Shown here piece by piece: positions 16,286-42,654 of a DNA stretch of 64,000 bases. Positions within the stretch are counted from its first letter, which is position 1. Every line of letters begins with the position of its first letter. The stretch lies in assembly GCA_030765145.1 (NCBI GenBank), contig JAVCDA010000002.1, positions 16,320 through 80,319 of the forward strand, given 5' to 3'. Made by a program: the position numbers and the translations under genes. This stretch comes from Candidatus Saelkia tenebricola (GTDB taxonomy: Bacteria > Omnitrophota > Gorgyraeia > Kaelpiales > Kaelpiaceae). The notes beneath the pieces were generated by a model. It saw only the letters and a list, made by a program, of their open reading frames with translations, did no database searches and was not told where the DNA came from.

Positions 16286-16648
16286 TTATTGCAACTGATA
16301 CCGGGAAGAGTCCCTTAATTGCAAATATTGATTGTTAAAATCGATTATTTTAAGCGTGGCATCCTTTACTTTGATTATATCAGGATTGGGAAATTTTAGG
16401 ATTATCGGAACATTGTTTTCTACATAAGTTAACAATAATACTTTCATCTCATCTGAATATTCATATCCGGAGTAATAGAGATTCTCTCCCATTTGAGATA
16501 ATATTTTTTCTCCGGCACTAAAAGTATAAGTCTTGGGTTCTGATACTGCATTTAACATGCCTCCTAAAATATTGTCTAAATCTGATCCAAAACCTGTTTT
16601 TATACCTATGAGCAAAATGATAGCCGTTATGACTGTTATGTATTTCAT
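16286..16648 (-). CDS. small hypothetical secreted protein
   Basis: Signal peptide MKYITVITAIILLIGIKTGFG; no family recognised. Confidence 0.45.
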   Translation of the reverse strand: MKYITVITAIILLIGIKTGFGSDLDNILGGMLNAVSEPKTYTFSAGEKILSQMGENLYYSGYEYSDEMKVLLLTYVENNVPIILKFPNPDIIKVKDATLKIIDFNNQYLQLRDSSRYQLQ

Positions 16649-17865: not shown

Positions 17866-18700
17866 TATTGTTTTCCTTTAGTTTTTCTTTTAACGATTGC
17901 AAAGTATCTTCTTTCATTTTAAACGAATGTTCTTCAGCAGGGAATTTATCCTTATGAACATCATCTTTGAATTTATTCAGAGCATCTTCTATTTGAGAGT
18001 TTAAATTCAAGTATTGTTTAATAAACTTAGGTTTGAAACAGCTGACGAGTCCCAGTATGTCAGGGGTTACCAAAACCTGTCCATCACAAGAGCTCCCTGC
18101 TCCTATTCCGATTACAGGTATAGTGAGTTTTTGAGCTATAATCTTTGTTAGCTGGTGTGGAACACATTCAAGTATTATGGCAAAACAACCGATTTCCTCT
18201 AAAAGGATACTGTCTTTATAAATTGTCTCAGCAGAAGATAAATCTCTACCCTGGACTTTAAGCCCACCTAAAATTGTAGCTGTCTGGGGAGTTAGCCCCG
18301 CATGGCCCAATACAGGTATACCTGCTTTTAATATGGCTTTTATCTGTTCTTTATGAGCTCCTTCTACTTTTACAGCATCACAACCAGCTTCCTTAATAAA
18401 TCTGCCAGCATTTCTTACGGCATCTTCAGTAGATATTTGATAGGATAAAAAAGGCATATCACCTATCAGAAACGTATCCGGTGCTCCTCTCCTTACAGCT
18501 TTAGAATGGTGTATCATCTCATTCATTGTTACGGGAATGGTTGATTCATAACCTAAAACCGTAGTTCCCAGGGAGTCTCCTACCAATAAAATATCAATGC
18601 CTGCTTTCTCTACAATTTGTGCTATGGGATAATCATAGGCAGTAAGCATTGTGATTTTTTCTTTCTTACTCTTTATCTCTGGAATTGTTAGCTTAGCCAT
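17855..18700 (-). CDS. panB: 3-methyl-2-oxobutanoate hydroxymethyltransferase
   Basis: ITMLTAYDYPIAQIVEKAGIDILLVGDSLGTTVLGYESTIPVTMNEMIHH is near-canonical PanB. Confidence 0.9.
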   Translation of the reverse strand: MAKLTIPEIKSKKEKITMLTAYDYPIAQIVEKAGIDILLVGDSLGTTVLGYESTIPVTMNEMIHHSKAVRRGAPDTFLIGDMPFLSYQISTEDAVRNAGRFIKEAGCDAVKVEGAHKEQIKAILKAGIPVLGHAGLTPQTATILGGLKVQGRDLSSAETIYKDSILLEEIGCFAIILECVPHQLTKIIAQKLTIPVIGIGAGSSCDGQVLVTPDILGLVSCFKPKFIKQYLNLNSQIEDALNKFKDDVHKDKFPAEEHSFKMKEDTLQSLKEKLKENNNGQ

Positions 18701-19638
18701 CTTAAATCCCCTTTGTCTTTTTTAATTAAGGTACGTTTTGATACAGCTTTTTTTATCCACCTTCTATCCTTGATAAATTCTAATACATAATGAGGCTTTT
18801 TGGGAAGCAAGAAAATCCAAAGATATATATCGTATAAAATTGTGAATGGAATATGTTTTATAAAATTCGCTAAATTTTCGTTTTTAATAAAAGTAGAATA
18901 ACGGTTTTTAATAAGCTGGAATTTAAATTCGCTTGATAAGTTGAGATATCCTAATCGTTTTCTCCTTTTCCAACCTGTTATTCCCCTATGGTGGTAAGCT
19001 ATGGCATAAGGAGTAAAATAACTGTTCCATCCTGCATTATGAGCACGCCAGTTTAAGTCTAAATCTTCCAAATATGCCTGATAATCTTCATCAAAATATT
19101 CCTGCTCCATTTTAATATCAAATAGCATTTCTTTTTTATAAAGCGCACAAGCACCTGATACACCCCAGACATAACCTTCTTCAAACTGATTTCTTTCTTT
19201 CTGTTTATAACCTCTTTCATGTGCACGCCTGGCGAGTGTCAGGAATTGACCGGTAGAATCTATTTTCTTTGTTTGTGGATTTAACAACTTGCCTGATATA
19301 GAGCCTATTTTTCTGTCTATTTTGAACTTGGGTAATACCTTTTCCAAATAATCATTGTTTAAGAAAACATCGTTATTAATGCAAAATAAATATTCCCCAT
19401 TTGAGGATATAATGCCTTGATTGTAAGATTTAGAGACCATCATGTTTTGACTGTTTTGAATTATTTTAGTCTGGGGAAAATATTTTTTTACCATTTCAAC
19501 TGACTCATCATTCGATGCATTATCCACTAAAATAACCTCAATATTTTTATATGTCTGGTTAAAAATAGAGTTAAGACAAACCTTTAAGATTTTTTTTCTG
19601 TCTTTATTTATTACGATAAAAGATACAAGTCCATTCAT
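18688..19638 (-). CDS. family 2 glycosyltransferase
   Basis: VSFIVINKDRKKILKVCLNSIFNQTYKNIEVILVDNASNDES, a GT-A N-terminal motif with a DxD region. Confidence 0.8.
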   Translation of the reverse strand: MNGLVSFIVINKDRKKILKVCLNSIFNQTYKNIEVILVDNASNDESVEMVKKYFPQTKIIQNSQNMMVSKSYNQGIISSNGEYLFCINNDVFLNNDYLEKVLPKFKIDRKIGSISGKLLNPQTKKIDSTGQFLTLARRAHERGYKQKERNQFEEGYVWGVSGACALYKKEMLFDIKMEQEYFDEDYQAYLEDLDLNWRAHNAGWNSYFTPYAIAYHHRGITGWKRRKRLGYLNLSSEFKFQLIKNRYSTFIKNENLANFIKHIPFTILYDIYLWIFLLPKKPHYVLEFIKDRRWIKKAVSKRTLIKKDKGDLRWLS

Positions 19639-19641
19639 TTT

Positions 19642-21363
19642 TTACCCCCCGGAAGCAGAGTATGTTCTTGTTGCTAATGTTACTCTATCTATTGTAAGGT
19701 CTGATGCAGACCAAAGCAGCTGCGATAGCTCTGAAATATTTAAAGGTTCCCTGCTGTATTTTCTTATCGATTTTCTTTTATATAGTGCTTCTTCAATAGA
19801 TATTTTTCCTTGATAACGAGAGTGAGGAAGCTGAATTATTTGCTCGGCAAACACTGTCGAATTCAGTGAAAATAGAAAAATAAAAGCTATTATTGTTTTA
19901 AGCTTTAAATATTGCAACTCTGTTTTAAAGCGTCTTTTAAGTTTTTCCAATAATAATTTTAAGCCGTACTTTTTATACCGCGAGAATAAAAATTTTAAAG
20001 GATTTTTAGTCAAGCTCGTTTTCAGAAATAAATGATCTCGTATAATAAGAGCAGTGTTTTTAATATTCTCGATATTGTCTTTGTTATATTGAGGATAATT
20101 TACTATAACTGAATTGGCTCCGTCAAAAGAATGAGAATCATTATTAGCAAGGTATCCATTTTTTTTCACCCAGGAATAAAACGGTGTACCCGGAAAAGGT
20201 GTTGCTGTTGATATTTGAGCATTTGCAATTAGTCTCTCTTTAATTAAACGTTTCATAAAATTAATTGTTTGGCTATCTTCTGCCGGGGTAGCTTCGGGCA
20301 GCCCAAACATAAAAGTGGCATACATCTTAAGACCGATGTTCTTAGCGTGTTTTAATAAATCAAGGATTCGGTCTGTTTCCATAGGTTTACCTATTTTTTT
20401 GCTCAATGGTAAAGAGGCTGTTTCAATTCCGAACCGGATTTTATAATATCCTGCTTCTTTCATGATTGTTAAAATATCTTTATCTAAGATTCTGATATCG
20501 CACATTGCTTCATATTTTAGATTTGAAAGATTTTCTTCTTTAAGTTTGGAGGCAAGTTCTTTAATAAAATCTTTATCACCGTTATGAGTTTCTTCATCAA
20601 AAAATATGCCTTCCATTTGGGGGTATTTATTTTTCAAATATTTAATTTCATTTATTATATTATTTACATTTCGAGGTCTCCAGTTCCCCTGGGCATAATA
20701 TATATTTCTTGAGACACAAAAATTACAGTTCCCCCTGCATCCTCTTGAAGCATAAGCCTGGATTTCTATATATTCTGAACTTGGTTCACCGGGTGTAGCA
20801 TAATCTATTCTTTTAATATCAATGTCTTCCGGAAAAGGTAGGCGAGAAAAATCAAGAAGCGGTCTTCTTTGATTAGGATATAATCCTAAAATAGTATTTT
20901 TATCTTTATTTTGAAATAATTCTAACAAAGTCAGCTCAAATTCACCTATACAAACATAGTCTACGCCTTCTTTTATTAATTCATTTGGAAATACTGACGC
21001 ATGTTGGCCTACAAATACAACTTTAACAGGTAATTTCTTTTTTAAGTTTTTTCCAACCCAGAGATTCTCTTGTATTGTTCTGGTAGATGACTCTATTATA
21101 AGCCAATCAGGTTTTTGGTCTAAAATTTTAGCAAGTGTCTGGTATTTGTCCCACCTTTTAAGACAAGGATCTATCAATTTGATTGCATGAGGAGTTTCCT
21201 GCTTTAATAAAGACGAGGTATAAGCTAACTCCCAGGGGTAATAAGCAAACCAGGATGATTTCAGGCGCACGCCTTCAGACCAGCGAGAAGGAGAATGAAT
21301 TATGTAATATCCCAGGTCATCTTTACCTACAGAGTTAGTTAAAATAATTTTTTCTTTAAACAT
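19642..21363 (-). CDS. B12-binding (class B) radical SAM protein with C-terminal TM segment and truncated SagB/nitroreductase-like tail
   Basis: Radical SAM motif CRGNCNFC. The N-terminal region is homologous to the N-terminus of the 1928-aa protein, including a shared SRW motif (HSPSRWSEGVRL vs VRAGSRWPHLKH). After a TM-like segment (IIAFIFLFSLNSTVFA), the last ~55 aa (IEEALYKRKSIRKYSREPLNISELSQLLWSASDLTIDRVTLATRTYSASGG) resemble the first third of a SagB-type dehydrogenase and stop abruptly. Confidence 0.8.
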   Translation of the reverse strand: MFKEKIILTNSVGKDDLGYYIIHSPSRWSEGVRLKSSWFAYYPWELAYTSSLLKQETPHAIKLIDPCLKRWDKYQTLAKILDQKPDWLIIESSTRTIQENLWVGKNLKKKLPVKVVFVGQHASVFPNELIKEGVDYVCIGEFELTLLELFQNKDKNTILGLYPNQRRPLLDFSRLPFPEDIDIKRIDYATPGEPSSEYIEIQAYASRGCRGNCNFCVSRNIYYAQGNWRPRNVNNIINEIKYLKNKYPQMEGIFFDEETHNGDKDFIKELASKLKEENLSNLKYEAMCDIRILDKDILTIMKEAGYYKIRFGIETASLPLSKKIGKPMETDRILDLLKHAKNIGLKMYATFMFGLPEATPAEDSQTINFMKRLIKERLIANAQISTATPFPGTPFYSWVKKNGYLANNDSHSFDGANSVIVNYPQYNKDNIENIKNTALIIRDHLFLKTSLTKNPLKFLFSRYKKYGLKLLLEKLKRRFKTELQYLKLKTIIAFIFLFSLNSTVFAEQIIQLPHSRYQGKISIEEALYKRKSIRKYSREPLNISELSQLLWSASDLTIDRVTLATRTYSASGG

Positions 21364-22453
21364 CTTTAAGAATAGAAATTAGTTTTTGAGTCTGGTTTTC
21401 TACTGTGTAATTATTCTCTATCTTTTCTCTGGCATTTGCACCGATTTTTTTTCTTAAAGAAGAATTTCCAGCGAGTTTTAGAATCGATCCTTTAAATTCC
21501 TCTTTATTTTTAGCCAGCAACCCATCTACTCCATCGTTAATAATATTTTGAGTTTCTCCAAAAGATGTTGCTATAACAGGAATACCTTTGGCCATAAATT
21601 CCAGTATTTTAACCGGAAATTTTGCTTCTGTGAATTTGTTTTCTATTGCAATCGGGAAGATACCTATATCAACATTATCTAAATATCGGGGTATATCACT
21701 TGGCGTAATCCAGCCTTTAAATGTCACATTTTTAATCCCCTCTTTTTTTGCCTCATCTTGAATGTTGGATTTCCATATTCCATCACCGATAATTTCTAAT
21801 TGTATATTAGGAATATCTTTAACTATTTCCAATATCCATTGCAGATTGATAAAATCTTCATGTCTGAACATTGTTCCTATCCAGGCTAATATCGTAATTT
21901 TTTTGTTCATATGGTTTTGTTTTATCTTAAAGTGCTCTATCTCTATTCCGGGAGCAAGATAAAATACACGGGGGGTAATATTTTTTATGTAATTATAAAG
22001 AAAGTTGCTTCCGGCCAAATTAAATAAAGCTTTTTTAGCTGTTATTTTAAAAATAAATTCGGCTTTTGATTTAGGTAAGAATCCCAATATGGGAGTTATA
22101 TTTTCCCTGAATTCCCAATCGTCAATGTCATAGATGTATTTTATCTTATTTTTAAATGCATAAAAAAGAGGTCCGAAAGAATGATAATTCAGGCGCTGGA
22201 TAATCAAAAGTGGGTTTTTGAATTGTTTAAGGTATGTATATGCTTTTTTATTATATTTTATTTTATCAGCTATAGTAAGAAAACTTTCTAAATTACCGCT
22301 TAAAGCTCCTAAGTTTTCAGAAAAGGACAATACACAAGACGTATAACCTTGTTTTTGTAAACAATTTGAGAAATTATATGCTCTATACCTTGCCCCGGGT
22401 AGAACTTTGCTTTCTCTGGTAATGAATATTATTTCGTAATTTTTTAAATTCAT
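21356..22453 (-). CDS. family 1 (GT4-type) glycosyltransferase
   Basis: C-terminal GT-B motif EAKFPVKILEFMAKGIPVIATSFGETQNIINDGVDGLL. The annotated start overlaps the upstream gene by 71 nt, so the true start may be slightly downstream. Confidence 0.75.
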   Translation of the reverse strand: MNLKNYEIIFITRESKVLPGARYRAYNFSNCLQKQGYTSCVLSFSENLGALSGNLESFLTIADKIKYNKKAYTYLKQFKNPLLIIQRLNYHSFGPLFYAFKNKIKYIYDIDDWEFRENITPILGFLPKSKAEFIFKITAKKALFNLAGSNFLYNYIKNITPRVFYLAPGIEIEHFKIKQNHMNKKITILAWIGTMFRHEDFINLQWILEIVKDIPNIQLEIIGDGIWKSNIQDEAKKEGIKNVTFKGWITPSDIPRYLDNVDIGIFPIAIENKFTEAKFPVKILEFMAKGIPVIATSFGETQNIINDGVDGLLAKNKEEFKGSILKLAGNSSLRKKIGANAREKIENNYTVENQTQKLISILKDV

Positions 22454-23615
22454 ATCCTTTCAAAACCTGCTCATAAATTTGCAACAAATTCTCAGCCGTT
22501 GTGGGCCAGTTATATTTTTCTTCAGCTCTTTTTCTTGATAAAACTGCCATCTTCTCTCTTAAGGCAGGTTGAGATAACAGTTCATTTATTCCGCCAGCAA
22601 ACACAAGATGATTACCTGGTTCTACCAGAATTCCTACTCCACCAACCATATTCCTGACCTCGCCTACGTTACTTGCTACAATGGCTTTGCCAGAAGCTAG
22701 GTATTCAGCTAGTTTTAAGGGGCTTTTAGATTGAGTTATGGCATTATTTTCAAAGCAGGCTGCACAAACATCGGCTGCTGCTATATATTTTGCTGTTTCT
22801 TCATGCGGAATAAATCCTGTAAAGATAATCTTATCTCTTAGCCCTAAATCTAAAGCTAATGATTTCAGTTCGCTTAATCTATACCCTCCGCCAACTATAA
22901 AAAACATAGCTGTAGGATACCATTGAATCACAACACTTACAGCATGGATAAATAGTTCTGCATATTGTGCTCCATGCAGCTGACCTAAATACAATACGAT
23001 TGGTCCAGTTAAACGGTATTTTTCTCTTATCAGGGTATTTTTATTTTGAGGATTAAAAATAGTCAGGTCAGCTCCTACATGAGCAGATGTGGTTCTTTTT
23101 GGGGATACTCCATATTCATTTGTAGCAAGCTGTATGAGACGATTACTTGAACAAGAGATTGAATCGACAAATTTCGGTAAAGCCCTTTCTAAGATCCACA
23201 TATATATCCCTATAAGAGGAGAAGCTGGTTTACCATAAAAATAAATTTTTGTTTCCCAATCATCCCAATCATAATGAATGGGTTTGTTCTGAATCCAGGA
23301 AGCTATGATTGCAGGGATAGATGCATAATGGAAACACTTTTGAAAATGCACTATATCAGCCCATTTTATTTCTCTTAAAAGTTTAACAGTGTTTTTAAAA
23401 AGGATATTTATTCCTCTTCTTCTATCCATTGGTATGATTTCTATGTTGTGCCAAATAAACCGCTGTTTTTTTAAATCTTTTAAATGTAGCGGAAAATATG
23501 CAATCTTTACACTGTGGTTAACTTTTATAAATTCCCGAGCTAAAGATTTAATTCGTATAGTCCAGGGTTCTGAGAGATCAAATAAATCATGCGGATGTAT
23601 CATAAATATTTTCAT
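22383..23615 (-). CDS. family 1 (GT4-type) glycosyltransferase
   Basis: GT-B C-terminal motif TGFIPHEE...PLKLAEYLASGKAIVASNVGEVRNMV, with an E-x7-E-like region. Confidence 0.8.
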   Translation of the reverse strand: MKIFMIHPHDLFDLSEPWTIRIKSLAREFIKVNHSVKIAYFPLHLKDLKKQRFIWHNIEIIPMDRRRGINILFKNTVKLLREIKWADIVHFQKCFHYASIPAIIASWIQNKPIHYDWDDWETKIYFYGKPASPLIGIYMWILERALPKFVDSISCSSNRLIQLATNEYGVSPKRTTSAHVGADLTIFNPQNKNTLIREKYRLTGPIVLYLGQLHGAQYAELFIHAVSVVIQWYPTAMFFIVGGGYRLSELKSLALDLGLRDKIIFTGFIPHEETAKYIAAADVCAACFENNAITQSKSPLKLAEYLASGKAIVASNVGEVRNMVGGVGILVEPGNHLVFAGGINELLSQPALREKMAVLSRKRAEEKYNWPTTAENLLQIYEQVLKGYEFKKLRNNIHYQRKQSSTRGKV

Positions 23616-23621
23616 AACAAT

Positions 23622-26600
23622 TTAACTTCCGGGGAATATCACCATTCGCCGTAACTTTCTTAAAATCCAGAGGTAAGTTTCAGCAATTAAAGTTAATAGA
23701 ATTATTAAAACCAGATATGGCAGCTTATACATTCTCACCCTAGGTAGAATCACAGTAGATTGGATGTTTTTTTCTTTTTTAGGTAAATCTTGGATTGAAT
23801 TAACAATAGTCTTTAGCGTTTCAATGTCATGTTTCTCAACATTTATTTGTTTACCTTCCTCTATATTTGTCTCCATTACCTTAAATCCCAACTGTTTGGC
23901 AACTTCTAAGATGCGTTCTCCTCTTGTTTTTCTTATATCGTATGTATTGCCATCATACGTTTGCCAGAGATAATGCCAATTATTTTGAGGAAGAGGTTTT
24001 AAATTGTATTCAGTTATGTTTTTATATATTGCTGTTCCGGCAATTAAATGAAGTGTGTTTATTGATTTTATAGTGTTGATGTAATTGCGATTTCTTTTTA
24101 TAAATTCAATTGTTTCTTGAAATTCCTTTTCTCCTTCAGATGGAAATCCAATCATAGTAAATATTTCTGTCTCAATTCCGGCTAAAGATGATTTTTTTAT
24201 AAATTGTTCCGCATCGCTTGATAAATAGGATTTTCGCATTTTTTTTAAGACTTTATCCGATGCACTTTCAAGTCCTATTTGAAGATTAATACAACCTGCT
24301 TGTTTCATTTTTTTCAAAATAGGTATATCCATATCTTTTCGAGGTATTGCTTCTCCTGACCAGGTAATATTCAATTTGTTTTTTATAATCAAATCGCATA
24401 ATTTATCCAATACTTTAGGATTACCATTTATTAAAGGATCGCAGATTGTGAAGTTTTTTATATTGTTATGGTGAAGATGATACTTTAGTTCCTGAAATAT
24501 ATGTTCGGCAGTTCTTGATCTATATTTAGATACGAGCTCACAGTTTATGCAAAATGCGCATTTACCTGTGCATCCCCGAGACCATTCCAAAATCAATGAT
24601 TGCCCGAAGTAAAGGTTAAGATTAAAATCTTCATAAGTTGGGAAAGGTAATGTATCTAAATCCTCAATTAACTCACGAGGAGTATAAATCCATAAGCCGT
24701 TTATTTTGGAAACAGTTCCCTTTATAATTCCAGAGCATTCCTTATCAAGTAGCTCAATCAATGCTTCTTCCCCCTCTCCCACAACGAAATAGTCAATATC
24801 ATCAGATATATTATCTATAAAAATTTTACGGGAATGTTCACTTAAACATGCCGGTCCACCGAGAATAATTTTTTTTGTTTTATCACGTTGTTTTATTCTT
24901 TTAATAAATTCAATAGTAATCCGTTCTTTGGGGTCTACAATTGAAAATCCTATATAGCCTGCTTCTGTTTCAAGTATTCTATCAACTGCTTCATTTATTT
25001 TTTGATCAAAAAATTTACACACTACAGGAAACCAGTCTTCTTCACTCCAGAAGTTTTTATTTTCTACATGCCACATCAATTTAAGATCTTCTGGTGCACT
25101 ATTATAAAAATCTATATTGAAGTCACAAAGAACAGCTTTATATCCATGGTTCTTTAACATACTTGCTAAGTAAGCCATACCTACGGGAGGATTGTTAATT
25201 CCCCAGGGCGGTGTAGTAATAAGTGCTATATGAGGTTTATTGGATACACTTGTTTTTCTTTGAGGTAATGCTGTTGCTTCTGTTGTATATGAAATATCTA
25301 ATTTATTAAGAAGATTATGGACTTTTTCTACCCTTTCCATACGTATATCAAAGTTATTTACATCCCTTATGAACCAGTTGGAATCGGGATTCTCCTTGGG
25401 GAATTCTATGTGATATCTTCCAGGATTAGAAAACAATTCGGATCCTGCCATTATGAATAAAGGATTTACAGATTTGACAAAATCAATGTGGTTTTTGTTT
25501 TCTTTTATAAAATCCAGAGTTAAATTTAAATCATCTGCTGTCTCTTGTGGAAAACCGACAATAAAATATAATACATTTTGAATACCTGCTTTTTTTGTCA
25601 ATTCCAGTGTGTGTGAGGAATCTTTAGTTGAGAATGTTTTACCCATAAGATGTAATATTTTATCACTTCCGCTTTCTGTTCCGTATTCCAATCTGAAGAA
25701 TCCGGCAGCTTTCATTTTCTTAAGCAAAGACAGGCTCATATCTCTTGGTATAGCAAGACCGGTAAGGTTGATAGAGAGATGGTTTTTTATTATAAGGCTA
25801 CAGACTTCATCTAGCCATTTTAAGTCTGCATTAACTGAAGAATCTACAATTGAGAAATAAATTTTGCCCAAAGTGTTTTTGTAGAACTTAAGCTCCTCAA
25901 CTATTCTTGTGGGAGACTTTTTTTTGTAGTATTTGCTCAGAACTTTAAAATCACAGAAGGAACATTTGCCGATACATCCCCGGGACCATTCAACAGCCAA
26001 GCTGTTTTTTGCAATGTATGAACCAAGAGAAAAATTTTTATATTTTGCATAAGAATAGGAATCTAATTTTTTTAAAGTTTTTATCGAAGATGTAATTCTG
26101 CTTTTATCTTTAAGAACAATGATGTTTTCTACATCGTTTATGGATTGGTTGTATGTTATTTTATCAATCAGTTTAGTAATGGCCTCTTCACCCTCTCCGC
26201 ATACGATAACATCAACTTTATCTTTTATTAATTCTAATAATTCTTCTCGCTGCTCTTTTACAGTAACTGAAATTCCTCCCAGTATTATCCATTTTTTAGG
26301 TGCGTGTTTCTTTATCTCCTCAATCACCCATTTAATCATCAAATACATTGAATTTGAGGGAACTGAAAATCCTACGATTTTAGCATCATTGTTTTTCTCA
26401 AGAGTTTGTTTTATTTCATTAAAAATATCACTATATTTTTTTAGAAGGTAAAAAATAAATTCTGGTTTTCTCCAATATAAAGTATGGTCCATTCGCCAGT
26501 ATTTTTTGTCTTCTTCTTTTACTTTATTGTATAAGAAAATATTTATGTCCAAAACCTCAACATCAAAACCTTTATTTTCCAAAACTTCTGATATTACGGC

Positions 26601-34098: not shown

Positions 34099-34762
34099 TT
34101 TCTTCTATCTTTATCGTAGTTTGTAAAGTTATAGAATAATCTTCTGCTATTGATTGTTGGGAAGGATTTATAAATAGCGTTTGTATTATTCGGGCGGAAT
34201 CATTAGGAGATGTGTTTTCTATGGCAATAAGAGCATTTGGTTCTGTTAGAGGAGGAACAATTTTTAAAAGCGGAAGTTTTTTTGTTTTATCTGCACTTAA
34301 TATAACTTCTACCCCTTTTATCTTAGGACTAGACCATATTCTATCCCATAGTAAACCGTTATAATTAGTAAAAAACTCAGGAAATTTACCTGCTGCATAA
34401 TCATTGATTTTCCAAGAGGTATACATCTCATTCAGCATGAAATTTTGCTGAATCATATTAATTGTAAAATTATTTAGATTCTTACAAGTAATATTCCACT
34501 GTAATGTATTGTCTGTAAGAATAAAGTCCCATGTTTGCCGGTGTGGTGCATTAATCCATTCCCCATAAAGTTTAAGCTTATCTTGAGTTATCTCAATAAC
34601 TTCCCAAGTTGCAAAACGGGAATCAAACCATTTTTGTTCATGATATATACTGGAATATAACCCCAGGTTTTTTGTTAAAATTATGTTTTTGTATGATAAA
34701 CTGCAATATCCCAGTAGAAAATCAATTTGAATGCGTTTGTTTTTTAAAGACAGTTCTTTCAT
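34082..34762 (-). CDS. hypothetical protein, paralog of adjacent gene and of Wzt C-terminal extension
   Basis: See the previous feature; 17-nt overlap with the downstream gene and 4-nt overlap with wzt. Confidence 0.45.
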   Translation of the reverse strand: MKELSLKNKRIQIDFLLGYCSLSYKNIILTKNLGLYSSIYHEQKWFDSRFATWEVIEITQDKLKLYGEWINAPHRQTWDFILTDNTLQWNITCKNLNNFTINMIQQNFMLNEMYTSWKINDYAAGKFPEFFTNYNGLLWDRIWSSPKIKGVEVILSADKTKKLPLLKIVPPLTEPNALIAIENTSPNDSARIIQTLFINPSQQSIAEDYSITLQTTIKIEENDGNS

Positions 34763-36621: not shown

Positions 36622-36668
36622 AGTTTTTCCTAATTCTGTTTTTTACTGCATAATATTTTATAACAATT

Positions 36669-37430
36669 TCAAATTTTTTTCAGGATTGAATTCTCCATTT
36701 TTTTATATAAAAAATAAGCCAGAATCAAAAATAATACAGCAAATATGAAAGCGTAAACATTGCCTCTACCCATAAAAGATGAGTAGTTTTCCAGCAATAC
36801 GCTTCTGTAAAGATCTATGAAATATGAAAGAGGATTACAATAAATTATAAATCTAAATCTTAACGGTACCATCAGAGGATTGTAGAAAACAGGTGTTAGC
36901 CAAAATAAAACCATAAGAACTGTTCCTAAAATGTGTTCTAAGTCTCTGATGTATAAATTGGTTATAGAAATTATAATCGTAACTGCTGCCAAAAATATAG
37001 TAAAGGAAACTGTTGGAATAATCAAGAGTATGAATTTATATAATAAAGCAGGATTATAAAAAGCAAAAACAGGCAGAAGTACCGCTATTCCTATTAAATG
37101 TTGAATTAGATTTGAACATGTTACAGAGAGAGGATACAAGAGATGAGAAAATGGAAATTGATGCATCATGGGTTTTTCTCTTACAAAAGCCTGGGTAGCT
37201 TCCGTTGTTAGATTGGTAAAATACAACCAGGGAATAAGCCCTGAAAGAACAAAAATATGAAAATCTTTCTGATCTATTTTGAGTACTTTCATAAAAACAA
37301 ATGTTATAGCAATCATTAGAATTATAGGTATCAAACCTGCCCACAAAATACCCAGAAAGGTAGAAGCATATTTGAATTTTAAATTTCTAATTGTTAAATC
37401 TCTTAAATTCTCGATGGTTTTTATTAGCAC
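36669..37430 (-). CDS. wzm: ABC-2 type polysaccharide exporter permease (Wzm/TagG-like)
   Basis: Six TM helices in 253 aa; adjacent to and co-oriented with the Wzt ATPase. Confidence 0.75.
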   Translation of the reverse strand: MLIKTIENLRDLTIRNLKFKYASTFLGILWAGLIPIILMIAITFVFMKVLKIDQKDFHIFVLSGLIPWLYFTNLTTEATQAFVREKPMMHQFPFSHLLYPLSVTCSNLIQHLIGIAVLLPVFAFYNPALLYKFILLIIPTVSFTIFLAAVTIIISITNLYIRDLEHILGTVLMVLFWLTPVFYNPLMVPLRFRFIIYCNPLSYFIDLYRSVLLENYSSFMGRGNVYAFIFAVLFLILAYFLYKKMENSILKKI

Positions 37431-38314
37431 CTGTTTCTCTCCTTGATAAAACTTTGCAATTCTTTTAATGCTGTTTTTGTATAGCTATAATTGCTTATTA
37501 ATAAAAATATTAATCGCGGCAGGTCATATAATAACAGGGATAAAATAATATAGGCCGTATTTTTAAGTTTAAAATATTTTAAAATAAGAAAATATCTGTT
37601 TCTAAAAGAAAGGTATTGGGCGTGTTTTGAATTTATATTGCTCCCGCCGCGATAATGATATCCAATAGCTTCGGGGATATATTCAAAACGGTATCCTTTA
37701 TTCTGAGCTCTGATAGCAACATCGAAATCTTCCACCAGATAATGTAGTTTAGAATCGAAATATTCTCCATTTGCACCAACTATGTTTTCTAACATCGATC
37801 TTTTATATACAGCTGCACATGCACATGGTCCGATGACTTTTAAAGAAGAGGCTTTAAAATTTTTATATAATTTTCCTGCTCCGTGGTCATAGAAACGATA
37901 GAATTTAGTTAATATAATACCTAAAGAATCAATACGCTTAGGATCTCTCATGTTTAAAACAGTACCTCCCCACATACCGGTATCAAACGATGCATTTAAA
38001 CTTCTGTGGATAATTTTAGAAATATAGTCTGGTTGTAAAATAACATCAGAATCAAGTGTCATAACATATTCAGAATTTGTGTTTTTTATAACCTGGTTTC
38101 TGGCAAAACATACTCCGTAATTTTTAATATTCCTAATAACAGGAATATTAAACTCGTTTAAAATATCCGCTGTATCGTCTTGGGAATTGTTATCAACAAC
38201 CCTTATTTCCACATAGGGATAATCTTGAGCTAAAACTGATTTTAGACATTTTTTAATAAACTTCCCGGCATTATATGCAGGTATTATCACCACTACCTTA
38301 GAATAACTATCCAT
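37424..38314 (-). CDS. family 2 glycosyltransferase
   Basis: VVVIIPAYNAGKFIKKCLKSVLAQDYPYVEIRVVDNNSQDDT, a GT-A N-terminal motif. Confidence 0.8.
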   Translation of the reverse strand: MDSYSKVVVIIPAYNAGKFIKKCLKSVLAQDYPYVEIRVVDNNSQDDTADILNEFNIPVIRNIKNYGVCFARNQVIKNTNSEYVMTLDSDVILQPDYISKIIHRSLNASFDTGMWGGTVLNMRDPKRIDSLGIILTKFYRFYDHGAGKLYKNFKASSLKVIGPCACAAVYKRSMLENIVGANGEYFDSKLHYLVEDFDVAIRAQNKGYRFEYIPEAIGYHYRGGSNINSKHAQYLSFRNRYFLILKYFKLKNTAYIILSLLLYDLPRLIFLLISNYSYTKTALKELQSFIKERNRC

Positions 38315-38348
38315 TTAAGTATTTATGCCACCTCTAAAATAATAAATG

Positions 38349-38945
38349 CTAATCCTTCTTTCCGTACTTATTGAAATATAGTATTTTCTCCAATGGTCTT
38401 TTAGGTACGTAATGAATACCTTTTTTATCTTGGTAGTATTTTGTTTTTTTATCTGTTTCTATAGTTTTTGGGGTCTCTTTCGGATATCCTAATGCAATTA
38501 AGGAATCAAGCTTTACGTGTTTTGGTAAGCTTAAAATTTTAGAGATTTCTTTTTTATTTATTGCGCCCAACCAACAGCTTGCTATTTTAAAACCCAATGC
38601 CGACAACATGATGTTTTCAGCCGCAGCACCGAGATCCCTTAAATCAGATTTTGAGCTTCTAGTACAATTTATAGCAATCCCTACATAATAAAGAGGTCTT
38701 TCCTTAATACCAGGAGTTCCTTGGGGATATATATATGCAGCCCATTTTGTATAAGGGAATATTCTTTGTGTCGTTTTGTTATTGGTTATTAATATATATT
38801 CCAAAAACTGTAAATTTGCAGCGCTCGGCGCACATCTGGCAGCATTAATAATCTTTTTTAAAACAGGAAGTGTTATTTTACGTCGAGAAAATTTTCTAAC
38901 AGTTCTTCTTTTGATAATCAAACTATATAACTCATTTTTTTCCAT
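38349..38945 (-). CDS. nitroreductase-family flavoprotein
   Basis: KRRTVRKFSRRKITLPVLKKIINAARCAPSAANLQ is a classic nitroreductase N-terminus (R.S.R.F....I......I..AA..APS..N.Q). Confidence 0.75.
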   Translation of the reverse strand: MEKNELYSLIIKRRTVRKFSRRKITLPVLKKIINAARCAPSAANLQFLEYILITNNKTTQRIFPYTKWAAYIYPQGTPGIKERPLYYVGIAINCTRSSKSDLRDLGAAAENIMLSALGFKIASCWLGAINKKEISKILSLPKHVKLDSLIALGYPKETPKTIETDKKTKYYQDKKGIHYVPKRPLEKILYFNKYGKKD

Positions 38946-38950
38946 ATTAA

Positions 38951-39451
38951 TTAAAATTTTTCCCAGTGCAGCAATTCGTCAAGAGGTCTCTTCTCTGCCT
39001 TAGTAATTAAATCATTTTTAGGATAACCCAAAGATATTATGCTTATTAGATTGTATTCTGATGGTGCTTTTAACAGTATTTTTATATCTGGAACATAATC
39101 TTTTTTATCTCCGGCAATCCAGCAGGATGCTATTCCATAACTCGTTGCAGCAAGCAAAATATTTTCAGTTGCAGCTGAACAGTCCTCAAGGTAATATTTC
39201 GTTGGCCTGGAGAATATAACTATACAAGCAGAAGCTTCTTTTAAAAAAAGTGCGTTTCTGTTTGTTAAGCGGGAAATTTCTTTAAGAGTTTCTTTGTTCT
39301 TTATTACAATAAATTCCCAAGGTTCTTCTCCTCTTGCTGTAGGAGCCATATGACCGCAGTCGATTAAGTCTAATAAGATTTCATCGGAGATTAGTTTGTC
39401 TTTATATTCCCTAATGCTGCGTCTTTTTTTTATTATTTCTCTTGTCCCCAT
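38951..39451 (-). CDS. nitroreductase-family flavoprotein
   Basis: KKRRSIREYKDKLISDEILLDLIDCGHMAPTARGEEPWEF is a nitroreductase N-terminus; it lies in tandem with the previous nitroreductase. Confidence 0.75.
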   Translation of the reverse strand: MGTREIIKKRRSIREYKDKLISDEILLDLIDCGHMAPTARGEEPWEFIVIKNKETLKEISRLTNRNALFLKEASACIVIFSRPTKYYLEDCSAATENILLAATSYGIASCWIAGDKKDYVPDIKILLKAPSEYNLISIISLGYPKNDLITKAEKRPLDELLHWEKF

Positions 39452-39452
39452 C

Positions 39453-41243
39453 TTAATCCATTTTTAAAATTGCCAAGAATGCTTCTTGAGGGATATCGAC
39501 TTTACCAAATTTTTTCATACGTTTCTTACCTTCTTTTTGCCTGTCCCAGAGTTTTCTTTTTCTTGTAATATCTCCCCCATAGCATTTTCCAGTAACATGT
39601 TTTTTTAAAGCAACTACAGACTCGCGGGCAATAATTTTTCCTCCTATTGCAGCTTGAATTGCCACTTCGAATAACTGCCTTGGGATCGTAGATCTTAATT
39701 TTTGAACCAGCTGCCTGGCTTTATAATTGGATTTCTCTTTATCTATTAAAAGAGATAGCGCTTCGCAGATTTCTCCGTTGATAAGAATATCAACCTTAAT
39801 TAAATCAACTTCTCTATACTCTAAAAACTCATAATCCAAAGAACCATATCCACGGGTCATGGATTTTATTTTATCATGGAAATCAATCAATATTTCCGCC
39901 AGTGGTAATTCATAAGTCAATCCTACTCTTTTTTTGCCGTAATACTCTGTTGCTTTATATATTCCTCGTTTTGCCTGGGTAAGCTCCATAATAGCCCCAA
40001 TTGAATCTGGAGGCACTAATATATAAGCTTTGACATAAGGCTCCATTACTTGTGTATCCCGGGATTGATTGAATTTAGAAGGTGTATCAACCTCTATTTT
40101 CTCCCCAGTCTTTTTTAAAACAATATATTTTACGTTTGGAGTGGTAATAACAATGTTTATTTTGAATTCTCTTTCTAGTCTTTCTTGGATAATTTCCATA
40201 TGCAAAAGCCCTAGGAATCCGCATCTAAAACCCGGTCCTAAGGCAGGAGAATTCTCCGGCTCAAATATCAATGCTACATCAGTAAGTGAAAGTTTCTCTA
40301 AAGCTTCTCTTAAGATATTGACATCAGACGTACTGACCGGATAAAAACCTGCATAGACCATTGGTTTATGTTTTTTAAATCCCGAAACAGCAACAGATGT
40401 GGGGTTTTCAAATGAAGTTACAGTATCTCCTGAAATTATCTCTCTTGGAATTTTAATGTTTGCAGTAATAAAACCTACATCTCCAACACTAAGCGAATCA
40501 ACAAACTTAGGGTAGGGAGTTAATATTCCGATTTCTTCGACTTCATATTCTTTACCTGTGGCAAACATTTTTATTTTATCTTTGGGTTTTATTATGCCGT
40601 CAAAAACTCTTAAGTAAATAACCACCCCTTTATAAACATCGAAATAAGAATCAAATATCATTGCTTTAAGAGGTTCTGAGACGTCTCCTTGCGGTGGAGG
40701 TACATCTTCTACAATACGCCTTAAAATATCGTCAATCCCAATACCCTCTTTAGCGCTGGCTCTTACGATTTGTTCCTTTTCTATTTGCAGGATATCTTCA
40801 ATCTGAACCTCGATTTCTTCTGCTCGTGCATTCGGCAAATCTATTTTGTTTATAACAGGAATAATTTTTAAGTTTTTTTCAAGAGCAAAATGAAGATTTG
40901 CAACAGTCTGCGCTTCAACACCCTGAGCAGCATCTACAACTAAAAGAGCCCCTTCAGAACAGGATATGGATTTTGTAACTTCGGACGTAAAATCCACATG
41001 TCCCGGGGTATCGATTAAGTTAAGTTCATAGTTTTCTCCATCATAGTTATATAACAGTCTTACAGCACTTGCTTTAATAGTTATTCCCCTCTCCCTCTCT
41101 AAGTCCATATCGTCAAGAATTTGGGATTTAAAAGATCTTTCTGTTATAGCATTTGTATTGAGTAGAAATCTATCTGCAAGCGTAGATTTTCCGTGGTCAA
41201 TATGTGCAATTATAGAAAAGTTTCTTATTAATTTAGGATCCAT
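39453..41243 (-). CDS. lepA: elongation factor 4 (LepA)
   Basis: IRNFSIIAHIDHGKSTLADR G-domain motifs, 596 aa, and the LepA-specific C-terminal domain (...GKCYGGDITRKRKLW). Confidence 0.95.
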   Translation of the reverse strand: MDPKLIRNFSIIAHIDHGKSTLADRFLLNTNAITERSFKSQILDDMDLERERGITIKASAVRLLYNYDGENYELNLIDTPGHVDFTSEVTKSISCSEGALLVVDAAQGVEAQTVANLHFALEKNLKIIPVINKIDLPNARAEEIEVQIEDILQIEKEQIVRASAKEGIGIDDILRRIVEDVPPPQGDVSEPLKAMIFDSYFDVYKGVVIYLRVFDGIIKPKDKIKMFATGKEYEVEEIGILTPYPKFVDSLSVGDVGFITANIKIPREIISGDTVTSFENPTSVAVSGFKKHKPMVYAGFYPVSTSDVNILREALEKLSLTDVALIFEPENSPALGPGFRCGFLGLLHMEIIQERLEREFKINIVITTPNVKYIVLKKTGEKIEVDTPSKFNQSRDTQVMEPYVKAYILVPPDSIGAIMELTQAKRGIYKATEYYGKKRVGLTYELPLAEILIDFHDKIKSMTRGYGSLDYEFLEYREVDLIKVDILINGEICEALSLLIDKEKSNYKARQLVQKLRSTIPRQLFEVAIQAAIGGKIIARESVVALKKHVTGKCYGGDITRKRKLWDRQKEGKKRMKKFGKVDIPQEAFLAILKMD

Positions 41244-41244
41244 T

Positions 41245-42654
41245 TTATTTTATCGATAAGGCAAATTTTTTACCGAAAGAAACAAGCTTTTTAACCTTAT
41301 CAATGGAAGAACTTTCAGAATATATCCTTAAAATAGGTTCTGTTCCTGATAATCTGAAAATCAGCCAGCTGTCGTTGGCGAGAATTATTTTTATTCCATC
41401 AGTTTTTTTGATATCCACAACTTCAAAATTACAGACTTTTTTAAACGGATGACTTTTCAGCTTTTTGAAAAGTTTGGGTTTTAATTTGTCAGGATAGTGA
41501 ATATCGACTCTTTCGTAGTAAAACTTGCCAAATTCATCCTCGACTTCATGGATAATCTGATTGATTCCTTTGTTTTCATGAGCCATAAGTTCAACCAGCA
41601 AAAGTCCGCTCAAAACACCGTCTCTTTCAGGGATATAGTTTTTAAACCCAATACCACCGGATTCTTCTCCTCCTATTAAAACATCTATTTTTTTCATAAG
41701 TTCAGCAATATGCTTAAAACCAACTGGAGTTTCATATACCTGGAGTTTAAATTTACGGGCAATAACTCCTATTAAAGAACTATTAGATATTGTTTTTACA
41801 ACTGCACCTGTTTCTTCCCGGTTTTTGATGAAATGGATAAGTAAAAGAGCCATGATCCATCCGGGATTTAAGAAACGCCCTCCCTTTGCTATCGCACCGA
41901 TTCTGTCTGCATCCCCGTCGGTTACAAGACAGATGTCATATTTGCTGCTCTTCATGATAGATAGAGAGTCTTTAAGGTTTTTAGCAATAGGTTCCGGACT
42001 AATTCCGCAAAATGAAGGATTTAATTCACCCCTTATTGTATCAACTTGACAATTTGAACCTGCTAAAATATCACACAAGAGATGATCTCCTGTTCCATAC
42101 ATCGCATCGTGTAAGATTTTGAATTTACTTTTTTTGATAACATCAAAGTTAATATAATTTCTCAAATATTTGACATATTCTTTTCTATAATCAGTTTCTA
42201 TAATCTTTCCCCTTTTCAAAGCTGTATCGTAATCCATTTCTCTTACTTTTGATTTCCCGAACAATTTCTCTATTTTTTTTGTTTCTGTTAAGGCGGCAGG
42301 AGAAGCCTCATCTGTTCTTATTTTTATCCCATTAAAATTCGCAGGATTATGGCTTGCCGTAATCATTATCCCGCCGGAAAATTTATATTTTTTGATTGCG
42401 AAGCATAAACAGGGAGAAGGTAAAGCGGATTTAAATATCCAAACACCTATATTATTTGCCGCTAAAACAGATGCAACTGTTTTAGCAAATTCCGGGGATA
42501 AAAATCTGGTGTCAAACCCCACAACTACTTTTAAATTTCTTTTTTTTGTATCTTTTAGAGAATCAGCATATGCCTGGGCAACTTTTCTTACATTCTCAAA
42601 TGTAAAATCTTCAGCGATTATCGCCCTCCATCCATCAGTTCCGAATTGTATCAT
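41245..42654 (-). CDS. phosphoglucomutase/phosphomannomutase family protein (phospho-sugar mutase)
   Basis: N-terminal FGTDGWRA motif and the active-site serine loop TASHNPANFNGIKI. Confidence 0.85.
   Translation of the reverse strand: MIQFGTDGWRAIIAEDFTFENVRKVAQAYADSLKDTKKRNLKVVVGFDTRFLSPEFAKTVASVLAANNIGVWIFKSALPSPCLCFAIKKYKFSGGIMITASHNPANFNGIKIRTDEASPAALTETKKIEKLFGKSKVREMDYDTALKRGKIIETDYRKEYVKYLRNYINFDVIKKSKFKILHDAMYGTGDHLLCDILAGSNCQVDTIRGELNPSFCGISPEPIAKNLKDSLSIMKSSKYDICLVTDGDADRIGAIAKGGRFLNPGWIMALLLIHFIKNREETGAVVKTISNSSLIGVIARKFKLQVYETPVGFKHIAELMKKIDVLIGGEESGGIGFKNYIPERDGVLSGLLLVELMAHENKGINQIIHEVEDEFGKFYYERVDIHYPDKLKPKLFKKLKSHPFKKVCNFEVVDIKKTDGIKIILANDSWLIFRLSGTEPILRIYSESSSIDKVKKLVSFGKKFALSIK

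Follow-up and report, generated by a model that had tools for sequence, protein, structure and literature searches.

Introduction

Polysaccharide pathways that depend on ATP-binding cassette (ABC) transporters employ conventional tailoring enzymes, and the transporter ATPase Wzt carries a jelly-roll carbohydrate-binding module. To our knowledge, radical S-adenosylmethionine (SAM) chemistry on sugars is found almost solely in small-molecule antibiotic pathways and in the formation of hopanoid head groups. In Escherichia coli O9a and in Klebsiella O12 and O4, the Wzt carbohydrate-binding module serves as an export checkpoint that reads terminal modifications (PMC11231755). The radical SAM enzyme HpnJ converts an amino sugar into the cyclitol ether head group of a hopanoid (PMC12324291). 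Wzm/Wzt glycan export and radical SAM sugar tailoring, the latter in aminoglycoside and hopanoid pathways, are each already known. Here a locus is described in which the two are combined, encoded within a 64-kb window (the whole stretch of DNA that was analysed) from the metagenome-assembled genome (MAG) of Candidatus Saelkia tenebricola (Omnitrophota).

The functional unit, delimited by comparative data, spans about 18688-38314 on the minus strand and comprises, in the direction of the genes, a family 2 glycosyltransferase (GT2), the permease Wzm, the ATPase Wzt, two small proteins of a new domain family (the u-domain), two radical SAM polyproteins, two family 4 glycosyltransferases (GT4), a B12-type radical SAM protein and a second GT2. 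It is interpreted, at a probability of about 0.68, as an ABC transporter-dependent (Wzm/Wzt) glycan assembly and export locus with radical tailoring, in which the u-domain on Wzt acts as the reader. All features discussed below lie on the minus strand, and coordinates are those of the window. Candidatus Saelkia tenebricola was named from Ace Lake, Antarctica, and the naming paper makes no mention of radical SAM enzymes, glycosyltransferases or O-antigen (PMC8542988). The larger polyprotein, of 1928 amino acids (aa), was found by homolog search to be 100% identical to a protein of this MAG that is annotated merely as 'radical SAM protein'.

The locus shares with the systems of E. coli O9a (WbdD/Wzt), Klebsiella O12 (WbbB/Wzt) and Klebsiella O4/O7 the presence of Wzm and Wzt beside glycosyltransferases. 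It also shares with these pathways a C-terminal extension of Wzt, here predicted to bind carbohydrate, and the fusion of catalytic modules in varying combinations; the modify-then-read logic that precedes export in those pathways (PMC11231755) would apply here as well. It differs from them in that the domain on Wzt is a mutarotase-like supersandwich rather than Wzt_C, present in up to eight repeats in relatives, and in that tailoring is assigned to radical SAM modules, whereas those pathways use kinases, SAM methyltransferases and Kdo transferases. Furthermore, standalone proteins and the tailoring enzymes contain the putative reader domain as well, and no terminator was identified.

Conservation of the locus and gene fusions

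A first-pass annotation of the window, made from the sequence alone, had proposed looking for syntenic clusters, and such a search recovered an identical gene order in Candidatus Kaelpia imicola (locus L005) and in a Joint Genome Institute (JGI) metagenome contig (L006). In both, genes for an M50 protein, Rpe, a sugar-phosphate mutase, LepA and one or two nitroreductases are followed by GT2, Wzm, Wzt, two small proteins, radical SAM proteins of ~1920 and ~1310 aa, two GT4 enzymes, a ~490-aa B12-radical SAM protein, GT2, PanB and BrkB. Their counterparts of the 1928-aa protein are 62-76% identical to it. A further relative, L001, keeps Wzm, Wzt, the pair of u-domain proteins and a 1941-aa radical SAM protein. 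The core, consisting of Wzm, a long Wzt, a multi-radical SAM protein, a B12-radical SAM protein (~480-545 aa) and GT4, was also recovered from distant Omnitrophota (L008, L010 and L011), where the flanking genes are unrelated; a GT2 follows the core in L008 and L010, and the L011 sequence ends right past the GT4.

The distant loci contain additional glycan genes, encoding a WecA-like Glycos_transf_4 protein (its gene is present in L008), PMT_2, DegT, a carbamoyltransferase and an asparagine synthase-like protein (AsnB). For example, the L010 locus (Omnitrophota MAG, 1-24206) contains at least eight radical SAM genes beside a 1344-aa Wzt, together with GT4, GT2, carbamoyltransferase and PMT_2 genes. 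A run of seven consecutive radical SAM genes followed by a GT2 was also found in a Woesearchaeota MAG (L012, 3819-20332), where transfer may have occurred between Omnitrophota and DPANN archaea, or the genes may be misbinned.

Several relatives encode the components as single polypeptides. The 1900-aa protein P0028 of L008 consists of a Wzt ATPase domain followed by two u-domains, a B12-radical SAM module, another u-domain and a SPASM-radical SAM module, and P0127 consists of a Wzt ATPase domain, five u-domains and a radical SAM/SPASM module. In P0113, a B12-radical SAM module lies between GT2 and GT4 domains, and the surrounding locus is rich in glycosyltransferases and nucleotide-sugar epimerase/dehydratases and also includes a nucleotidyltransferase; P0106-P0120 are similar. 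These predicted fusions tie HpnJ-like B12-radical SAM and SPASM modules physically to the machinery of glycan polymerisation and export. The four-module architecture of the 1928-aa protein was seen in 8 of 120 homologs, all from the Saelkia/Kaelpia clade, and most relatives have two modules; in L010 the radical SAM modules are separate genes. Because four-module, two-module and separate-gene forms coexist among relatives, the modules appear to have been shuffled by fusion and fission.

The fusions and the distant loci bear directly on whether the genes form a functional unit at all, or whether radical SAM genes merely lie beside glycan genes in a very compact, one-strand genome. Close packing on one strand runs on through unrelated housekeeping genes, which speaks for a mere neighbourhood, and the counts of promoter-like and terminator-like sites, which are not above those of shuffled sequence, neither support nor contradict co-transcription. 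However, the genes stay associated in distant Omnitrophota although their flanks there are entirely different, and the covalent fusions of Wzt with radical SAM modules, and of glycosyltransferases with a radical SAM module, contradict a mere neighbourhood, which is thus scarcely credible.

Genes for glycan assembly and export

The gene content reported by the first-pass annotation was reproduced by Pfam searches: two GT2 and two GT4 enzymes, Wzm, a Wzt with a long extension, a mutase, two nitroreductases and, just upstream, Rpe. The locus encodes four glycosyltransferases. A 296-aa GT2 (37424-38314; Glycos_transf_2, 100 bits) is encoded by the first gene of the conserved locus, occupies the same position in L005 and L006, and has generic NCBIfam matches (exopolysaccharide/PgaC-like) below the cutoffs. 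A 316-aa GT2 (18688-19638; Glycos_transf_2, 97.4 bits) is encoded by the last gene, with PanB next to it, as also in L005 and L006. The two GT4 enzymes are adjacent, one of 410 aa (22383-23615; Glycos_transf_1, 80.5 bits, with Glyco_transf_4) that has orthologs in L005 and L006, and one of 365 aa (21356-22453; Glyco_trans_1_4, 80.9 bits, with Glycos_transf_1).

Involvement in Wzm/Wzt glycan export is indicated by an ABC-2 type permease (Wzm, 253 aa, 36669-37430; ABC2_membrane, PF01061, 47.9 bits) adjoining an ABC ATPase (Wzt, 620 aa, 34759-36621; ABC_tran, PF00005, 75.7 bits), next to glycosyltransferases. The ABC_tran match defines the Wzt nucleotide-binding domain (residues 1-235, 35917-36621). 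The NCBIfam galactan-export Wzm/RfbD model gives 56 bits for Wzm, against a cutoff of 380, and the best models for the ATPase, TagH (157 bits) and galactan Wzt/RfbE (149 bits), are both below their equivalog cutoffs.

The C-terminal extension of Wzt, of 385 aa, consists of two parts. The first (residues 240-418, 35368-35904) is one copy of the u-domain, matching the A2 profile hidden Markov model (HMM), which was built from a broader alignment, at 42.6 bits (E 4e-14); the Wzt orthologs of L001, L005 and L006 match an earlier 8-sequence u-domain HMM at E of about 1e-6. The canonical Wzt_C family (PF14524) was not matched by the whole protein at E<=0.01, nor by residues 430-620 at E<=10. Thus, of the Wzt-C-like paralogs that had been proposed, the paralogy holds, since two neighbouring proteins are paralogous to Wzt residues 240-418, but they are not of the Wzt_C family. 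The second part (residues 430-620, 34762-35334) is conserved in the Wzt of L001, L005 and L006, and constitutes a second domain without a named family on the transporter ATPase. It was considered as another copy of the u-domain and rejected, with a probability of 0.8% in an hhalign comparison with the u-domain profile.

A predicted mutarotase-like domain shared by the exporter and the putative tailoring enzymes

Downstream of Wzt lie the genes for the two standalone u-domain proteins, u226 (226 aa, 34082-34762), which has orthologs at the same position in L001, L005 and L006, and u253 (253 aa, 33337-34098). The two are paralogs (E 4e-13), and together with Wzt residues 240-418 they make three copies of the domain in the locus. 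No Pfam or NCBIfam family was matched by u226, nor any Pfam family even at E<=10, and u253 has no Pfam family above cutoff, with just three chance-level matches (E 0.008-0.12); the u-domain profile had no match among PDB sequences. The AlphaFold2 model of u253 (predicted local distance difference test 90, predicted template modelling score 0.84) comprises an N-terminal helical hairpin followed by an all-beta domain of ~210 residues, with the supersandwich fold of the galactose mutarotase-like (aldose 1-epimerase) superfamily. On this model, the u-domain is a new, uncurated domain with a predicted galactose mutarotase-like supersandwich fold, distinct from the jelly-roll Wzt_C module of E. coli O9a.

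The domain also occurs beyond the window. According to an HMM built from u253, u226 and their orthologs, most homologs of the 1928-aa protein contain one to three copies; by the broader profile, the domain is part of 88 of the 120 best homologs. Among 1.84 billion representative proteins, an index-free HMM search returned only 671 clusters, whose named members are Omnitrophota. Seven of the top matches were scanned, and in six of them an N-terminal ABC ATPase domain precedes a tandem array of 3-8 u-domains.

Invariant or near-invariant columns of the family alignment are G72, S86, W91, W116, Y152, W155 and N216. Mutarotases use a His/Glu pair, and no His or Glu column in the alignment is invariant or near-invariant. 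Binding is favoured over mutarotase catalysis, because Trp, Tyr, Asn and Ser positions are conserved and there is no such His/Glu column. The domains could instead be enzymes (anomerases or epimerases) or holders of intermediates, with the copies on Wzt having a catalytic or structural role, in which case the locus would still be a radical-tailored glycan pathway. This is decidedly unlikely given the family alignment; in addition, 3-8 tandem copies behind an ATPase domain resemble repeats of a binding module more than enzymes, and the mutarotase-like fold is usually a non-catalytic domain in glycoside hydrolases.

A second carbohydrate-type fold is predicted within the 1928-aa protein, where an insert of ~185 residues separates the second and third radical SAM modules. 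Residues about 965-1110 (30008-30445) are modelled as a beta-sandwich of the CBM6/CBM35 type (carbohydrate-binding module families 6 and 35), and the insert is present in P0001-P0008 and in two distant proteins. It matches no Pfam family at E<=10, and so is not a CBM_6 or CBM35 member by sequence; the embedded module is therefore described as CBM6/35-like by its modelled fold, and its sugar binding is putative. Compared with the galactose mutarotase-like domains of carbohydrate-active enzymes and with CBM6/CBM35, the domains described here resemble neither a Pfam family nor a PDB sequence at a detectable level, save one weak match of the insert to xanthan lyase (E 0.03). They also differ in context, being cytoplasmic and attached to Fe-S radical enzymes and an ABC ATPase rather than to secreted hydrolases.

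Radical SAM modules

Eight CxxxCxxC motifs had been noted in the 573-, 1310- and 1928-aa proteins, and all eight fall within Pfam Radical_SAM matches, at the expected place in the domain, which disposes of the possibility of an unrelated Fe-S fold. The motifs lie at residue 209 of the 573-aa protein, residues 19, 527 and 995 of the 1310-aa protein, and residues 217, 534, 1185 and 1595 of the 1928-aa protein. The three proteins match Radical_SAM (PF04055, cutoff 29.5 bits) in one, three and four stretches, with 55.7, 194 and 237.6 bits and whole-protein E values of 8.6e-15, 2.7e-57 and 1.1e-70, respectively, which places them by sequence, far beyond chance, among true radical SAM enzymes. The modules are 25-44% identical to one another, and are by these identities old paralogs rather than recent duplications.

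A B12-binding domain match precedes four of the modules, and the other four have a SPASM match. The B12-binding domain (PF02310, cutoff 32.1 bits) is matched by the 573-aa protein (35.7 bits), by two stretches of the 1310-aa protein (85.8 bits) and by the 1928-aa protein (34.2 bits), and SPASM (PF13186, cutoff 21.5 bits) by one stretch of the 1310-aa protein (48.4 bits) and three stretches of the 1928-aa protein (101.6 bits). The canonical SPASM motif has seven Cys and two auxiliary [4Fe-4S] clusters. An alignment of the four SPASM-type modules shows just four conserved Cys after CxxxCxxC, so the assignment of four class B and four SPASM modules in the first-pass annotation stands at the level of Pfam matches and fails for the full seven-Cys motif. 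Four auxiliary Cys, rather than seven, point to one auxiliary cluster per module, the arrangement of twitch-domain enzymes.

The 573-aa protein (19642-21363) is a B12-binding and radical SAM protein of HpnJ/AprD4-like type. The 1928-aa protein (27551-33337) begins with a related module (module 1, residues 1-500, 31838-33337, with a CxxxCxxC at 217), to which the 573-aa protein is 30% identical. It is followed by three radical SAM modules with an abridged SPASM domain: module 2 (residues 505-960, 30458-31825, CxxxCxxC 534; Radical_SAM, Fer4_12 and SPASM), module 3 (residues 1150-1560, 28658-29890, CxxxCxxC 1185) and module 4 (residues 1561-1928, 27554-28657, CxxxCxxC 1595). Modules 2 and 3 are 44% identical over the radical SAM core, and module 4 is 32-34% identical to them. 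The 1310-aa protein (23622-27554) begins with a module of the abridged SPASM type (module 1, residues 1-300, 26655-27554, CxxxCxxC 19, with SPASM at residues 222-287), followed by two B12-binding and radical SAM modules that are 33% identical (module 2, residues 300-770, 25245-26657, CxxxCxxC 527; module 3, residues 770-1250, 23805-25247, CxxxCxxC 995). Near its C-terminus is a hydrophobic helix (residues 1278-1298, 23661-23723, LPYLVLIILLTLIAETYLWIL), a putative membrane anchor.

For the two HpnJ/AprD4-like modules, the best NCBIfam neighbour is HpnJ (TIGR03471), with near full-length alignments scoring 176.7 bits (573-aa protein) and 245.2 bits (1928-aa protein), below the cutoff of 577.6. 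HpnJ works together with the GT2 enzyme HpnI, and a GT2 gene is adjacent here too. It acts on a lipid-anchored amino sugar, whereas the context here is Wzm/Wzt polymer export, and no hopanoid genes (shc, hpnH, hpnI, hpnK) occur among the Pfam-scanned window proteins. Among solved chains, AprD4 (6fd2, E 1.2e-22) comes nearest to module 1 of the 1928-aa protein; it is named a radical SAM diol dehydratase by NCBIfam. Amino sugars are the substrates of both of these enzymes, to which the HpnJ-like modules are closest among characterised proteins. The earlier expectation that the class B modules 'methylate or epimerise' is too narrow for these two, whose nearest relatives carry out ring contraction of a sugar (HpnJ) and diol dehydration (AprD4).

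The B12-type modules of the 1310-aa protein show a generic likeness to class B methyltransferases (PhpK, RiPP C-methyltransferase and ladderane-type enzymes, RiPP denoting ribosomally synthesised and post-translationally modified peptide); the best NCBIfam scores for module 2 are 121 bits for PhpK, against a cutoff of 600, and 118 bits for RiPP C-methyltransferase, against 282. The SPASM-type modules weakly resemble PqqE, AhbD/NirJ and the tungsten-enzyme maturase TIGR04317, which supply their best NCBIfam and PDB matches and share with them a radical SAM core and a C-terminal Cys-rich auxiliary-cluster domain. The scores amount to <=30% of the cutoffs (112 bits against 380 for module 2 of the 1928-aa protein, 82 bits against 380 for module 1 of the 1310-aa protein), and the solved chain closest to module 3 of the 1928-aa protein, PqqE, is matched merely at E 5e-7. 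They further differ from these enzymes in having four Cys instead of seven, and the setting here lacks a peptide-recognition domain, a precursor gene and cofactor pathway genes. The dehydrogenase BtrN has a single auxiliary cluster, to which the four auxiliary Cys kept by the SPASM-type modules would correspond, with no direct sequence match obtained. AprD4 and BtrN are single-domain enzymes that act on soluble pseudo-oligosaccharides in antibiotic clusters, whereas up to four modules per polypeptide are found here, accompanied by domains of the carbohydrate-binding type, in a polymer export locus.

Several of these neighbours are enzymes of lipid metabolism, including a ladderane-type B12-radical SAM family (104-112 bits per module), the tetraether synthase Tes (50 bits), HpnJ and HpnR. 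Together with the terminal hydrophobic helix of the 1310-aa protein and a report of radical SAM lipid enzymes in Omnitrophota (10.1101/2023.10.20.563219), they are consistent with glycolipid or lipid tailoring, in which the modules would cross-link, cyclise or methylate alkyl or isoprenoid chains, and Wzm/Wzt would flip the finished glycolipid. However, the scores are all far below the cutoffs, and membership of the hopanoid, ladderane or Tes lipid families was rejected on these grounds; HpnJ itself works on the sugar of the hopanoid rather than on the lipid; the accessory domains have carbohydrate-type folds; a B12-radical SAM module is fused between GT2 and GT4 domains in relatives; and neither the window nor the related loci contain lipid-synthesis genes. 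Lipid tailoring is therefore unlikely, retaining a small but appreciable share of the probability.

The SPASM matches raise a different alternative, proposed in the first-pass annotation alongside a tailored surface glycan, namely a glycosylated RiPP-like product: the radical SAM enzymes would modify a peptide encoded elsewhere, the glycosyltransferases would glycosylate it and the ABC transporter would export it. SPASM radical SAM enzymes are best known as peptide maturases; the NCBIfam neighbours of the modules include RiPP C-methyltransferase (118-126 bits per module), ApyD, PqqE, StsB and WgkB; and the GT4 enzymes weakly match TIGR04157, a family that owes its NCBI name to an association with radical SAM genes (40 bits; cutoff 400). 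All of these scores are below cutoff. A precursor gene has no room in the block, where the junctions across 18688-39451 are all overlaps or gaps of <=47 nucleotides (nt), and no PqqD/RRE (RiPP recognition element), peptidase or leader-processing Pfam family was found in the block genes at E<=0.01. The transporter is of the ABC-2 Wzm/Wzt type, with a TagH- and galactan Wzt-like ATPase, and the radical SAM modules are fused to carbohydrate-type folds, Wzt and glycosyltransferases. These observations make a RiPP-like product very improbable, and the carbohydrate-type folds on the radical SAM proteins, together with the Wzt-radical SAM and GT2-radical SAM-GT4 fusions in relatives, favour the tailored surface glycan.

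Some further features of the radical SAM proteins may be recorded. Module 2 of the 1928-aa protein has an insertion of ~90 residues that is not present in the other three SPASM-type modules; it contains four extra Cys (C793, C822, C825 and C831; residues 793-831, window about 30845-30960) that could form an additional metal site. The 573-aa protein has an 83-aa C-terminal tail (residues 491-573, 19645-19893) that is not found in its 488-490-aa orthologs and is specific to the window. The tail consists of a hydrophobic helix, followed by an apparent truncated nitroreductase/SagB-type N-terminus (ALYKRKSIRKYSREPLNISELSQLLWSA...YSASGG), with a Pfam Nitroreductase match at E 0.039 and a BLAST match to the nitroreductase of the window at E 5e-4 in a two-sequence database; its probable origin is a third nitroreductase gene, of which a remnant became joined in frame.

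Module boundaries repeatedly carry a helical element rich in lysine (HHFKENGVLLTFMKTWDYVSF, ESFKTHGRKATFKRITKFL and SRYKKYGLKLLLEKLKRRF), at 33997-34095 (u253 residues 1-34), 29888-29965 (1928-aa protein, residues ~1125-1150) and 19900-20000 (573-aa protein, residues ~455-490). In the models it takes the form of the helical hairpin of u253 and, behind the CBM-like insert, of one long helix. It may serve the modules as a common linker or for docking, or be a helix at the membrane surface, and would accompany each module.

Proposed pathway

In the proposed pathway, assembly of a polyprenol-linked glycan by the GT2 and GT4 enzymes would take place at the cytoplasmic face of the membrane, after initiation by a phosphoglycosyltransferase presumed to be encoded elsewhere. 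The mutarotase-like and CBM-like domains would hold the radical SAM modules on the glycan, allowing them to abstract hydrogen from sugar carbons and to introduce several C-H-level modifications. By their nearest neighbours, the two HpnJ/AprD4-like modules would most likely catalyze dehydration/deoxygenation or ring rearrangement, the other two B12-type modules C-methylation, and the four modules with one putative auxiliary cluster dehydrogenation or epimerisation. The mutarotase-like domain on Wzt would then read the finished or modified glycan and license its export via Wzm/Wzt, following the logic of the Wzt carbohydrate-binding module in E. coli O9a and Klebsiella O12, but with another fold.

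Several observations weigh against this pathway. Neither an initiating polyprenol-phosphate phosphoglycosyltransferase (WecA/WbaP type) nor a chain terminator is identifiable by Pfam among the scanned window proteins; E. coli wecA likewise lies outside the O-antigen cluster. Every radical SAM module falls below all curated NCBIfam subfamily thresholds, which makes the assigned reaction types nearest-neighbour guesses. AprD4 has a B12-binding domain yet is not known to bind cobalamin, and cobalamin binding by the four B12-type modules is putative. The u-domain and the CBM-like insert match no sequence family and are assigned by predicted fold alone, and folds of the mutarotase type are not restricted to carbohydrate contexts, the P1 domain of YidC being an example. 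Residues 430-620 of Wzt match no Pfam family even at E<=10, which leaves half of the extension without an assignment. In addition, transcription units are not readable from the DNA scan, in which promoter-like and terminator-like sites are at or below the number expected for shuffled sequence.

A more specific version of the radical-tailored glycan pathway, in which arrays of radical SAM modules are docked on or fused to Wzt through the reader domain and carry out multiple radical C-H reactions on a polyprenol-linked polysaccharide before or during export, is tentative and falls somewhat short of even odds. If it is correct, sugars could undergo deoxygenation, contraction of their rings to carbocycles, C-methylation and epimerisation, among other reactions. 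The resulting surface polymer would be heavily modified at its carbons and have no known counterpart, and with the reader domain the Wzt export checkpoint would have been solved a second time and independently.

Novelty of the locus

No paper linking radical SAM enzymes with Wzm/Wzt pathways, or describing these proteins, came up in full-text literature searches, in agreement with the view of the first-pass annotation that the combination is undescribed. Three features are new: the combination of Wzm/Wzt export with radical SAM sugar tailoring in a conserved, phylum-wide locus; a domain family common to the exporter and the tailoring enzymes, for which the role of reader is proposed; and polyproteins with up to four radical SAM domains and an embedded module predicted to be of the carbohydrate-binding type.

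Omnitrophota include very small, host-dependent or predatory cells, and their surface chemistry bears on attachment to partners. If the radical-tailored glycan pathway is correct, it would extend across the phylum and have a surface polymer decorated by many radical enzymes, and the u-domain would be a new domain family that couples substrate recognition to both tailoring enzymes and exporter; the four modules per chain would be the most extreme natural radical SAM fusions seen in the analysis. For enzymology, the standalone reader proteins and modular polyproteins would provide tractable constructs for finding new radical sugar reactions.

Boundaries of the locus and neighbouring genes

The locus lies within an unbroken series of 15 minus-strand open reading frames (ORFs) at 18688-42654, of 316, 573, 365, 410, 1310, 1928, 253, 226, 620, 253, 296, 198, 166, 596 and 469 aa in order of rising coordinate. 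The coordinates and lengths first reported for this series are correct, and the count of about 16 genes is one too many. Likewise, junctions with overlaps of 1-17 nt or tiny gaps were borne out, except that the gaps (1-47 nt) reach 47 nt and that the two GT4 genes show an apparent overlap of 71 nt. The description of the whole block as a gap-free 24-kb operon was an overcall, since it includes LepA and the mutase, with Rpe just outside, and the packing is a property of the whole window. Almost all genes in the 64 kb are on the minus strand and close-packed, the cumulative GC skew falls steadily, and unrelated housekeeping genes overlap by a few bases. The gap-free look of the block thus follows from a strand bias and compaction that extend over the whole window, and, because the one-strand packing continues through housekeeping genes on both sides, packing does not mark an operon boundary. 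Housekeeping genes in the window include those for LarC/LarB-type proteins, bactofilin, MgtC, TsaD, GatA/GatB, PanB, an M50 protease, RuvX and tryptophan biosynthesis.

LepA, the phosphohexose mutase and Rpe form a conserved housekeeping flank. The translation factor LepA (596 aa, 39453-41243), to which the first-pass annotation had given no name, lies between the glycan genes and the mutase (469 aa, 41245-42654; phosphoglucomutase/phosphomannomutase family by Pfam), and Rpe is encoded just upstream of the mutase, outside 18688-42654. The mutase is nearest to archaeal-type GlmM (315 bits, against an NCBIfam cutoff of 439). The mutase and Rpe were considered as pathway members and rejected, since LepA intervenes and relatives have the same housekeeping order.

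The two nitroreductase-family flavoproteins (198 aa, 38349-38945, and 166 aa, 38951-39451; Pfam Nitroreductase, 77.9 and 84.4 bits) lie between LepA and the first GT2, and their membership of the locus is uncertain. Neither reaches an NCBIfam cutoff, and assignment to BluB was rejected (45 bits, against a cutoff of 150). Two copies are present in L006 and one in L005, and none in L008, L010 or L011. The suggestion that they are dedicated electron donors for the radical SAM enzymes is not upheld by this distribution, in which they stand beside the locus in the Saelkia/Kaelpia clade only, and they are assigned no role here.

Two other ORFs of the window may be mentioned. Downstream of BrkB and PanB, a 120-aa ORF (16286-16648) has a signal peptide-like N-terminus and no Pfam match; it is the sole small uncharacterised ORF near the locus, and shows no sign of being a precursor peptide. 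Between the tryptophan genes and an aldo/keto reductase gene, and unrelated to the locus, lies the gene for a 510-aa protein (50092-51624) with DUF2779 and a weak match to a Cas4-like nuclease.

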